Origin: Planctomycetaceae bacterium
GTDB lineage: Bacteria; Planctomycetota; Planctomycetia; Pirellulales; UBA1268
Assembly (NCBI GenBank): GCA_046074885.1
Contig: JBJTPA010000133.1
Coordinates: 1 to 40,445, forward strand
Reading direction: 5' to 3'
Length of the DNA stretch: 40,445 nt
This document shows positions 36,368 through 40,445 of this stretch, piece by piece. The first letter of the stretch is position 1; each line of letters begins with the position of its first letter. Below the pieces are notes generated by a model, which was not told the DNA's origin, ran no database searches, and saw only the letters and a program-made list of their open reading frames with translations. The position numbers were made by a program, and so were the translations under genes.

Positions 36368-36378
36368 GCCGAAGGTTC

Positions 36379-36468
36379 GGAGAGGTGGCAGAGCGGTCGA
36401 ATGCGCGTCTTTGCTAAAGACGTGTCCGGTCAAAAGCTGGACCGCGGGTTCGAATCCCGCCCTCTCCG
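36379..36468 (+). tRNA. tRNA-Ser (anticodon GCU)
   Basis: Acceptor GGAGAGG/CCTCTCC, 3-bp D stem GCA/TGC, anticodon stem CGTCT/AGACG with loop TTGCTAA. Long variable arm (class II), T arm GCGGG-TTCGAAT-CCCGC, discriminator G. No encoded CCA. Confidence 0.93.
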
Positions 36469-36647
36469 TTTTTCGGTTTCGCGCTCCGGCGCAATGAGCC
36501 GCCGGGCGTCAGGCCCGGCCTGAATGACCCGCGGGCCCAGGTGCGGCGTAGGAGCGGGAGGCTGCCACCATCGCCATCCCGGCCCAGGGTTTGCCAGTTT
36601 GCCCCTGGCGGCATTCGTTCTCGTCTTTTTCGGACGAGGTGCGCACC

Positions 36648-37677
36648 ATGGCGGACGACGACGCGAGCGGGAATGGCGTGGACGGCCGGGGGGTCTGCGG
36701 GCCCGGGCCGCGGTTACTCGACCGCGTTCGACGCGCGATCCGGCTCCGGCATCTTTCGCCGAGCACCGAAAAGGCCTACGTGCACTGGGCCAAGCGATTC
36801 ATCCTGTTTCACCATAGGCGGCCGCCCCGGGGAGATGGGTGAGGAGGAGGTGCGGGAGTTCCTCACCCACCTCGCCGTCCGTGGTAATGTGGCCGCTTCA
36901 ACACAGAATCAGGCTCTTGCGGGCCTGTTGTTCCTCTACGAGAGGGTGCTCGAGCGACCGCTCCAGGATCTGGGGCCCGTGGTGCGGGCGAAGCGGCCGA
37001 CGCGGCTGCCGTCCGTGCTGAGCCCGGAGGAGGTGCAACGGGTGCTCGGCTGCCTCAAGGGGCAGAATTGGATCGTGGGCATGCTGCTCTACGGGGCGGG
37101 GCTCAGGCTGCTCGAGGCCCTGCGGCTGCGGGTCAAGGACCTCGACATGCAGCGATCGGAACTCTTGGTTCGGGAGGCCAAGGGCAACAAGGATCGTGTG
37201 ACGGTGATGCCTGAGTGCCTGCGGAAGCCTCTCGCGAGGCATCTCGAGGAGCGACGCCACTGCCACTTGTTGGAAGTGGACAGGGATCGGGGCCGGGTGG
37301 TGCTGCCGGGCGCGTTTGCCCGCAAGAACCCGGCGGCCGAGCAGGATTGGGTCTGGCAGTGGGTGTTTGCGGCGAAGACGGACTTCCGGGATCGGGAGAC
37401 GGGCCGTTTCTACCGCCATCATCTGCACGAGACGGCGATCCAGCGGGCGGTGCGGGAGGCCGTGATCAAGGCGGGGATCACGAAGCGGGCGACGTGTCAC
37501 ACGTTTCGTCATTCCTTTGCCACCCACCTCCTGTTGGACGGCTACGACATCCGCACGGTGCAGGAACTGTTGGGGCACAACGACGTGAAGACCACGATGA
37601 TCTACACCCACGTGCTGAACCGCGGCGGCCGTGGCGTCCGCAGCCCCGCCGACCGCTTGGCCGGGCCGTCCTCCTGA
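36648..37677 (+). pseudogene. intI: Integron integrase IntI, interrupted by a +1 frameshift near nt 36825-36832
   Basis: N-terminus in the frame of ATG 36648 ([38 protein letters not shown], stop at 36840). The rest is in the next frame ([29 protein letters not shown]...). Tyr-recombinase motifs [55 protein letters not shown]. IntI-specific insertion [24 protein letters not shown]...RHHLHE. Confidence 0.88.
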
Positions 37678-37766: not shown

Positions 37767-37794
37767 TTGCGATCCCGTTTATCCAGTAGATAAT
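37767..37794 (+). promoter_or_regulatory. Candidate cassette promoter (Pc-like)
   Basis: TTGCGA (37767-37772), N16, GATAAT (37789-37794). Lies between the intI stop and the first cassette and points into the array. Cassette 1 has only 18 nt between its boundary and its ATG, so it needs an external promoter. Confidence 0.3.
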
Positions 37795-37849: not shown

Positions 37850-37940
37850 AAAGACTTTCTCTTGCGACGCCCTCGACCATCCGTCACGTTATCGAGCCAA
37901 GCCGGCCGGCTTCCAAGGGCCGCACAATCACTGGTTCGAC
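37850..37940 (+). other. attI region; crossover core GTTCGAC at 37934-37940
   Basis: GTTCGAC (37934-37940) is the exact reverse complement of R'' GTCGAAC (38222-38228) of the first attC, which defines the attI/cassette-1 junction (G|TT at 37934|37935). The extent of attI upstream of the core is a guess. GTT-containing half-site-like words occur at 37887 (GTTATCG) and 37828 (ACGGAAC). Confidence 0.45.
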
Positions 37941-37952
37941 CGAAAACACGCT

Positions 37953-38213
37953 ATGGGCTTGAGCACCGTTGAGTTGATCATGGCCGTCGAGGACGAGTTC
38001 GGCATTGAGCTCGCGGAAGCCGATGCAGCAAAGCTCGCGGTGCTTGGTGAAATGCACGCGCATATTGTTCAAGCGATTCGGCAGCGTGGCGAGTCTCCCA
38101 ATGAGACAGATGTGTGGGAAAGACTGAGGGCCATCGTCGTCGAGCAGCTCGGTGTCCAACCTGCCGAGGTGACGCGAGCAGCACATCTCGTCAAAGATTT
38201 AGGAGCCGACTGA
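37953..38213 (+). CDS. Cassette 1 ORF: ACP-like (phosphopantetheine-binding-fold-like) 86-aa protein with permuted segment order
   Basis: Residues 1-45 (GLSTVELIMAVEDEFGIELAEADAAKLAVLGEMHAHIV) resemble ACP helices II-IV. Residues 50-86 (VWERLRAIVVEQLGVQPAEVTRAAHLVKDLGAD) resemble ACP helix I up to the DLGAD of the DSL motif. Confidence 0.6.
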   Translation: MGLSTVELIMAVEDEFGIELAEADAAKLAVLGEMHAHIVQAIRQRGESPNETDVWERLRAIVVEQLGVQPAEVTRAAHLVKDLGAD

Positions 38214-38221
38214 CAAATCTG

Positions 38222-38309
38222 GTCGAACAAGGCAATGCAGCGGACTCGCGATAAAATCGGTCCTGATGGAGACTCCAAGGTCGCGAGCCGCTGATTGCCG
38301 GCGTTCTGG
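38222..38309 (+). repeat. attC site 1 (88 bp)
   Basis: R'' GTCGAAC (38222-38228), R' GTTCTGG (38303-38309). Stems GGCAAT/ATTGCC, CAGCGG/CCGCTG and CTCGCGA/TCGCGAG, with single bulged G and A on the R'' arm. Confidence 0.85.
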
Positions 38310-38999: not shown

Positions 39000-39473
39000 A
39001 TGAGTGCGATTTACGTCGAGACGTCGATTGTTGGGTACCTGACCGCTCGATCCGCGTCCGACGTTGTATTTCAAGCCCGCCAAGAACTGACACGTCGCTG
39101 GTGGCAACAGCGTCGCGAGGGATTTGACCTCTACATCAGCCAGTTGGTGCTTGATGAGGCTGGGGCGGGCGATCCCGCGGCAGCAGCGGACCGCCTGCGT
39201 CTCCTCGAAGGCTTGCCGCTCCTTGGCGAATCGGCGGAAGCTGACCGACTTGCCGATCTCCTCATCGCCCGGCATCTGTTGCCAGAAAAAGCAGCGGCAG
39301 ATGCCCAGCACGTCGCCTTGGCGGCCACCGCTGGCGTAGACTACTTGCTGACTTGGAACTGCAAGCACATCGCAAATGCGGATTTGCTGCCCGCCCTGTA
39401 CGAGACGTTCAGAGCCGAAGGGTTCCTGCCGCCGCTGATTGTCACGCCCGAGGAGTTCTCCGATGCTGGTTGA
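39000..39473 (+). CDS. Cassette 3: PIN-like (VapC-type) toxin-family protein, 157 aa
   Basis: IYVETSIVGYLTAR..., LVLDEAGAGD, AADAQHVALAATAGVDYLLTWNCKHIAN. Acidic residues lie at the positions expected for a PIN fold. Confidence 0.78.
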   Translation: MSAIYVETSIVGYLTARSASDVVFQARQELTRRWWQQRREGFDLYISQLVLDEAGAGDPAAAADRLRLLEGLPLLGESAEADRLADLLIARHLLPEKAAADAQHVALAATAGVDYLLTWNCKHIANADLLPALYETFRAEGFLPPLIVTPEEFSDAG

Positions 39474-40342: not shown

Positions 40343-40445
40343 ATGAATCCAACCGTTTACCTCGAAACAACGATCATCGGCTACCTCGCGATGCAGCCCA
40401 GCGGCGTTCTACGGATCGCTGCCAACCAACAGACCACGCACGAAT
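40343..40445 (+). CDS. Cassette 5: PIN-like protein, paralog of the cassette-3 ORF, 3'-truncated by window end
   Basis: MNPTVYLETTIIGYLAMQPSGVLRIAANQQTTHE aligns with MSAIYVETSIVGYLTARSASDVVFQARQELTRR. Confidence 0.7.
   Translation, partial: MNPTVYLETTIIGYLAMQPSGVLRIAANQQTTHE

Follow-up and report, generated by a model that had tools for sequence, protein, structure and literature searches.

The first gene cassette of an integron in a Planctomycetaceae bacterium encodes a small protein that resembles acyl carrier protein (ACP) in two separate halves. We asked whether this is a functional protein whose segments are circularly permuted or the remnant of a larger gene, and what such a protein could do without the serine that holds the cofactor. 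ACP is among the best-studied small proteins, and the serine-linked cofactor defines its family. An earlier note on this DNA had considered two possibilities, namely a permuted carrier fold that serves as something other than a carrier, and the remnant of a tandem duplication. The window is the whole stretch of 40,445 nucleotides that was analysed; its end is an integron.

Segment order and the serine column

The open reading frame (ORF) at 37953-38213 on the forward strand encodes an 86-aa protein and was characterized from the ORF list, Pfam, NCBIfam, phmmer and a tandem hidden Markov model (HMM) test. Its segments run in the order helix II, helix III, helix IV, linker, and helix I with its loop. 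A phmmer search of all PDB sequences with the ORF returned ACPs alone, each as two stretches in swapped order, and no PDB chain collinear with the ORF was found. ACP residues 36-71 corresponded to ORF residues 3-38 and ACP residues 3-35 to ORF residues 54-86. With 2ehs (E 1.7e-11), ACP 36-71 aligned to query 3-38 and ACP 3-34 to query 55-86; the E. coli structures 1acp and 1l0h showed the same swapped two-stretch pattern.

Profile searches gave a similar picture. The PP-binding model PF00550 reached 30.5 bits summed over two stretches (cut-off 20.8), TIGR00517 scored 60.6, under its cut-off of 70.45, and thirteen NCBIfam ACP models matched the ORF in two stretches with every score under the model cut-off. 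Similarity to ACP (PF00550/TIGR00517) covered all helices of the four-helix bundle. No model for the permuted order was found in Pfam or NCBIfam by the profile searches with the ORF.

We then used an HMM of eight canonical ACPs, among them the host's own AcpP, which is encoded on another contig. The ORF alone gave two half matches of 27 and 39 bits, and an ORF-ORF tandem gave one match of 74 bits over HMM positions 3-74 that spans the junction. When Met1 was omitted from the tandem, the junction became gapless (80 bits) and Gly2 fell on the Ser column; the de-permuted ORF gave one match of 83 bits. The earlier note had proposed both the tandem test and the PF00550 search. The former yielded the single full-length match across the junction that it predicted, and the latter found similarity in an alignment that is permuted, not collinear.

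The ORF does not follow the collinear ACP order (helix I, loop, helices II, III and IV). The D-S-L serine, i.e., the 4'-phosphopantetheine site, is absent; Gly2 stands in its column, at the point where the chain is interrupted. The ACP domain is complete, and each of its residues occurs once: the chain has been opened between Asp35 and Ser36 (ACP numbering), so that it starts at the N-terminus of helix II and ends with the Asp located just before the phosphopantetheine Ser of ACP, and the old C- and N-termini are connected through a linker of approximately 6-11 residues. The permuted order of the halves, the Gly at the aligned Ser position and the break exactly at the D-S-L attachment motif, all of which had been proposed from the sequence at first reading, were thus borne out.

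In its other properties, the cassette protein resembles AcpP (PF00550, TIGR00517). It has four helices and a long loop, it is acidic (pI 4.6 vs 4.05 for the host AcpP) and of similar size, and either half shares 45-65% identity with canonical ACPs. In helix II the acidic residues E41 and E47 are kept, as are F50 and the D-L-G motif. It differs from AcpP in being permuted and opened at the D-S junction, with Ser36 replaced by an N-terminal Gly. As it lacks both the collinear order and the cofactor serine that define the ACP family, we do not class the protein as an ACP; it is best called a natural conserved circular permutant of ACP. We are highly confident that it is a real, conserved, permuted, serine-less ACP-fold protein, and it is very likely that the cassette product is not a classical Ser-phosphopantetheine carrier.

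An AlphaFold2 (AF2) model of the ORF product built from nine sequences had a pLDDT of 86 and a pTM of 0.78, with helices at residues 5-16, 31-44 and 51-66. Only two bridge residues were present, 30 and 78; they lie one in each half, indicating that the halves are in contact in the model. Foldseek of the model against the PDB returned half-length ACP matches only (31-45 columns, rmsd 0.4-1.7), one of them over 31 columns at rmsd 0.5. Such matches follow from the use of a sequence-ordered aligner on a permuted chain and are therefore neutral on the identity of the global fold. We infer that the fold is still ACP-like, the predicted packing of the halves being drawn from sequence, pTM and one bridge.

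The integron and its first cassette

All coordinates in this section are on the forward strand of the window unless another locus is named. A tRNA-Ser (GCT) gene found by ARAGORN (36378-36469) lies directly upstream of the integron integrase gene (36649-37677), which carries an apparent frameshift near 36812-36838. The translation of 36826-37674 matched TIGR02249 over model positions 39-315 of 315 with 388 bits (cut-off 265), and the N-terminal part, approximately the first 38 model positions, lies in another frame (36591/36649-36842). The N-terminal 64 or so codons are read in one frame and the other 283 in a second frame, and the shift sits in a C/G run near these positions (36812-36838). 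The split may reflect either a true pseudogene or an assembly error at a homopolymer. The integrase gene is co-oriented with the cassette array; in class 1 integrons, the integrase gene is divergent from the array.

The attI crossover box GTTCGACC occupies 37934-37941, and the cassette begins at T37935. Cassette 1 (37935-38303, 369 bp) consists of an 18-nt leader, the ORF and attC, and ends before GTTCTGG; 37953-38213 is its only sizeable sense ORF. Its attC (38221-38309) comprises R'' (38221-38228), inner repeats at 38237-38251 and 38281-38293, and R' GTTCTGG (38303-38309). R'' reads GGTCGAAC and is exactly complementary to GTTCGACC, the start of this cassette in the crossover box. The bottom strand of attC was predicted to fold at -25.9 kcal/mol (z -5.7 vs shuffles). 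The GC content is 57% in the cassette and 72% across the initial 36 kb of the window. The cassette thus has an attC with inverted repeats, moves between arrays as described below, and follows an integrase gene and attI: it is a bona fide integron cassette, next to an integrase whose frame is apparently broken.

The attI-proximal position and the distance of 18 nt from the boundary to the ATG had been pointed out earlier and agree with these coordinates. As only 18 nt precede the ATG, the cassette would have to be expressed from outside; here it is a single-gene, promoterless, attI-proximal cassette. Transcription could come from read-through of the co-oriented intI or from a promoter-like site in attI. 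A sigma-70-like consensus match, TTGCGA-16-GATAAT at 37767-37794, is a candidate cassette promoter, and the span from intI to the first cassette held one such site vs 0.3 expected.

The earlier note had also called this the only cassette of the array that is not a toxin-antitoxin module. This held in part: toxins are encoded in cassette 2 (PemK/MazF) and cassette 4 (ParE-like), and the two-gene cassette 3 has no family match. Cassettes 3 and 5 (39000-39473 and 40343-40445) begin with related ORFs that have similar N-termini, and neither of these first ORFs matched Pfam or NCBIfam. Cassette 3 contains a second, overlapping ORF of 69 aa and may be an uncurated toxin-antitoxin pair.

A mobile and conserved family of permuted ACPs

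A word-indexed search returned eight homologues of 86-88 aa with 63-95% identity over the full length. M1-G2-L3 and D82-L83-G84-A85 were invariant among them, and they end in D-L-G-A-D/N. When 1.84 billion representatives were scanned exhaustively with HMMER, 171 matches at E <= 1e-10 were obtained, and the best 150 of these were examined. Approximately 90 of these best 150 were short forms collinear with the ORF over residues 1-86, and 36 were long forms of 180-255 aa, in which the N-terminus corresponds to the first ~50 residues of the ORF and the C-terminus to the last ~45. The permuted order was common to more than 130 clusters (50% identity), nearly all of which start with MG-L and end with D-L-G-x-D. 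We refer to this family as cpACP. The cassette ORF belongs to it, with M-G-L at the start of helix II, a D-L-G-x-D end, a length of ~86 aa and one set of helices.

Conservation was concentrated at the recognition helix and the D-L-G turn. M1, G2, E7, E13 and F16 were invariant in 85 short forms, and L3, V6, G32, D82 and L83 were conserved in at least 90%; the conserved positions correspond to L37, V40, E41, E47, F50, D31 and L32 in ACP numbering. The helix II consensus of the family is almost that of AcpP, and the ACP core and pocket residues are kept. Residue 2 was Gly in 134 of 139 permuted members, Ser in four and Ala in one. No conserved Ser, Thr, Cys or Lys was found in the 85 short forms. 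At the other end, every member stops at most about one residue past the Asp35 equivalent. Gly, Ser and Ala at position 2 all permit removal of the initiator Met under the specificity of methionine aminopeptidase. The four members with Ser at this position (P0055, P0079, P0095 and P0128; M-S-L-D) would expose it at the cofactor position after Met removal, and they are natural controls for modification.

The literature search found no published description of a natural permuted ACP. cpACP is thus an undescribed, large, conserved and uncurated family of acyl carrier proteins in which circular permutation has arisen naturally. Environmental Planctomycetota have many integron cassettes of unknown function, and this one is a tangible case among them, both foldable and abundant. 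An ORF from 'Candidatus Zipacnadia' (L025:5001-5228) has a family-like start, M-G-L-A-V-V-E-M-I-M-A-I-E-D-E-F, loses similarity after helix IV, and may be a decayed copy.

In the long forms, a membrane hairpin or a zinc ribbon is inserted at the old ACP termini. In three of them (L010:6001-6705, L033:5001-5735 and L027:5001-5810; 234-270 aa), from Planctomycetaceae and Armatimonadota genomes, the ACP halves lie at the extreme N- and C-termini, with a two-helix hydrophobic hairpin and a C-P-S...F-Y-R-L-R-R-A-L segment resembling a second helix I plus loop between them. A 122-aa variant (L018:1492-1860) has a four-cysteine, zinc-ribbon-like insert at the linker position, and its gene is flanked by GDP-mannose 4,6-dehydratase (gmd) and a GDP-fucose-synthase-like epimerase (fcl).

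Codon comparison of the window gene with the cassette copy in L003 gave a dN/dS of 0.10 at a dS of 0.84. More distant computable pairs gave 0.05-0.16 at a dS of 2-4, which is near or beyond saturation; for several other distant pairs, dS was not computable. By this codon measure, the gene is under purifying selection.

The same cassette was found in many different arrays in freshwater metagenomes. In four contigs (L003-L006), the coding sequence and the 18-nt leader were identical at the DNA level and the upstream elements all differed: an IS110 transposase gene, a ParE cassette, an IS66 TnpB gene and another attC type. A second cassette clade (P0168, L021) occurred in 49 blocks of the collection with varying neighbouring cassettes, and in at least five neighbourhoods (L103-L108). 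One attC type flanks the homologues in L001-L007, L021 and L103-L108. Other members are ordinary chromosomal genes of Planctomycetota without attC, in genomes named Gemmataceae, Planctomycetaceae or unclassified, and a long form is present in an Armatimonadota genome. The earlier suggestion to look for homologues with the same order, and to see whether they too are cassette-borne, was therefore answered in two ways: such homologues exist, and some travel in cassettes while others do not. Across this range, the upstream context changes fully (attI, several attC sites, chromosomal genes) and the MG-L start is kept. In a sample of the host phylum, 6 of 401 genomes had a match among the candidates scored.

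Upstream of the permuted-ACP cassette in L001, a group II intron reverse transcriptase/maturase gene (RVT_1 and GIIM; L001:57-1484) lies on the opposite strand, just before the preceding attC. A maturase next to attC is typical of attC-targeting group IIC introns. PADLOC indicated no link to a defence system. PHROGs gave phage ACP families only, over one half of the protein; the M-G-L...D-L-G form was found in none of 34 loci from viral contigs, where the matches were canonical D-S-L ACPs only.

Possible roles and origin

We hypothesized that the cassette product acts without a cofactor. Gly at position 2 should let Met1 be removed, leaving a Gly N-terminus, and the protein would remain cofactor-free. 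With the acidic recognition helix II kept, it could dock on ACP-client proteins as a mimic of apo-ACP. Candidate clients are phospholipid or lipid A acyltransferases, holo-ACP synthase or another client, and binding would modulate or inhibit the client. That the cassette encodes a functional, mobile cpACP member that stays cofactor-free is, in our estimation, rather probable; that it docks on ACP clients through helix II and acts there by mimicking apo-ACP is the most likely role but a more tentative proposal.

Apo-ACP is a transient precursor of normal topology, whereas the cassette protein would be hard-wired cofactor-free, with the backbone open at the site. The two are alike in presenting an ACP surface without a prosthetic group, a functional precedent only (PMC3896788). 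Apo-ACP strongly inhibits glycerol-3-phosphate acyltransferase and arrests the growth of E. coli (review PMC3896788), which sets a precedent for a hard-wired mimic; inhibition by the cassette protein itself is conjectural. The non-carrier role envisaged in the earlier note is supported, at the level of sequence, by the exact permutation, Gly in 134/139 members, the lack of a conserved Ser, Thr, Cys or Lys in the short forms, and purifying selection. A natural family that opens its backbone at the cofactor serine, begins with Gly and keeps the recognition helix points to a function of the ACP fold that can do without the classical cofactor. The protein is a candidate for a natural cofactor-free ACP mimic for enzymes of fatty-acid, phospholipid and lipid A synthesis, and a scaffold whose N-terminus lies at the cofactor site.

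Several observations speak against mimicry. Replacing Ser with Gly in a normal ACP would be enough to produce a cofactor-free mimic, so mimicry does not explain why the chain opens at the serine. Nor does it account for the invariance of the chain ends and of Gly2, a residue whose conservation greatly exceeds that of most of the chain. In addition, carrying an inhibitor of lipid synthesis in a single-gene cassette, with nothing to restrain it, would come at a cost. No conserved partner gene that would name a client was found around the chromosomal members (approximately ten loci). Their neighbours vary and include gmd/fcl, a GT2 glycosyltransferase, an LpxL-like acyltransferase, DUF1501 and SAICAR synthetase. 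Genes for envelope sugars or lipid A adjoin three of these ~ten loci, which is only a hint.

These neighbourhoods bear on a different reading, in which the protein is a positive structural partner, i.e., an adaptor or subunit, of an envelope-biosynthesis enzyme or membrane complex and not an inhibitor, the membrane-anchored long forms being a tethered version of the same function. The two-helix membrane hairpin between the ACP halves of the long forms is consistent with it, as are the GT2 glycosyltransferase beside L010, gmd and fcl around L018, and the LpxL-like lipid A acyltransferase after L017. However, these three of about ten neighbourhoods have no single common partner, and the cassette form moves alone between genomes, so that its partner, if any, would have to be among the widely conserved proteins of the host. 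We regard this reading as unlikely.

Less likely still is a protein that remains a carrier with a new attachment chemistry, in which a prosthetic group or an acyl chain is held by the exposed alpha-amine of Gly2 or, rarely, by the hydroxyl of Ser2. Gly2 sits where Ser36 does, and an acyl chain on it could enter the usual ACP pocket. This reading would account for a position 2 that is invariant in the 85 short forms and limited to Gly, Ser and Ala, which all permit Met excision, in the 139 members; for a chain end that never runs more than about one residue beyond the Asp35 equivalent; and for the retained ACP core and pocket residues. However, a need for a hydroxyl would predict Ser, which was found in only 4/139, and no gene for a dedicated enzyme accompanies the single-gene cassette or is conserved beside the chromosomal members. 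To our knowledge, no bacterial transferase modifies an N-terminal Gly in this way. The fuller form of this proposal, in which cpACP is an 'N-terminal carrier protein' holding its group on the Gly exposed by Met excision and the cassette spreads a portable acyl-handling module among planctomycetes, seems to us improbable.

Finally, tandem ACP proteins exist (P0049, P0062, P0073 and P0142) and a cut through two copies gives the permuted order, but a non-functional fragment of a tandem ACP-ACP gene, a rearranged cassette or an ORF-calling artefact is extremely improbable given a dN/dS of 0.05-0.16 in the computable pairs (dS > 0.8), the same start and end in more than 130 clusters, an MG-L start kept under completely different upstream contexts, and a stop directly after Asp86 in all members. 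The tandem-duplication remnant suggested in the earlier note does not hold for the window gene, which is intact, shows no decay and belongs to a large family whose termini are fixed.

Tandem duplication may nevertheless be the ancient origin of the family. Tandem ACPs, both in PUFA and polyketide synthases and as stand-alone proteins (P0049, P0062 and P0142), share the helix IV-linker-helix I junction with the cassette protein and are therefore a plausible source under duplication followed by truncation. They differ in keeping complete domains and the D-S-L serine, whereas the cassette protein has one set of helices and no serine. A family tree built from 86 columns was poorly resolved on a single vs multiple origin of the cassette-borne members.

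Two other origins were rejected. Derivation from the host's own acpP does not agree with 30/78 identity after de-permutation or with the GC content of the cassette (57% vs 72%). Permutation through a circular cassette intermediate does not agree with an attC that lies outside the ORF, with the stop after Asp86, or with the permuted order in chromosomal genes without attC.

Natural circular permutation of a small helical bundle, conserved as a family, is known from the swaposins, which are permuted relative to saposins. cpACP is similar in that the same segments are rotated and the fold is kept, although the fold is a different one. Unlike in the swaposins, the new termini of cpACP lie exactly where the parent family has its functional site.
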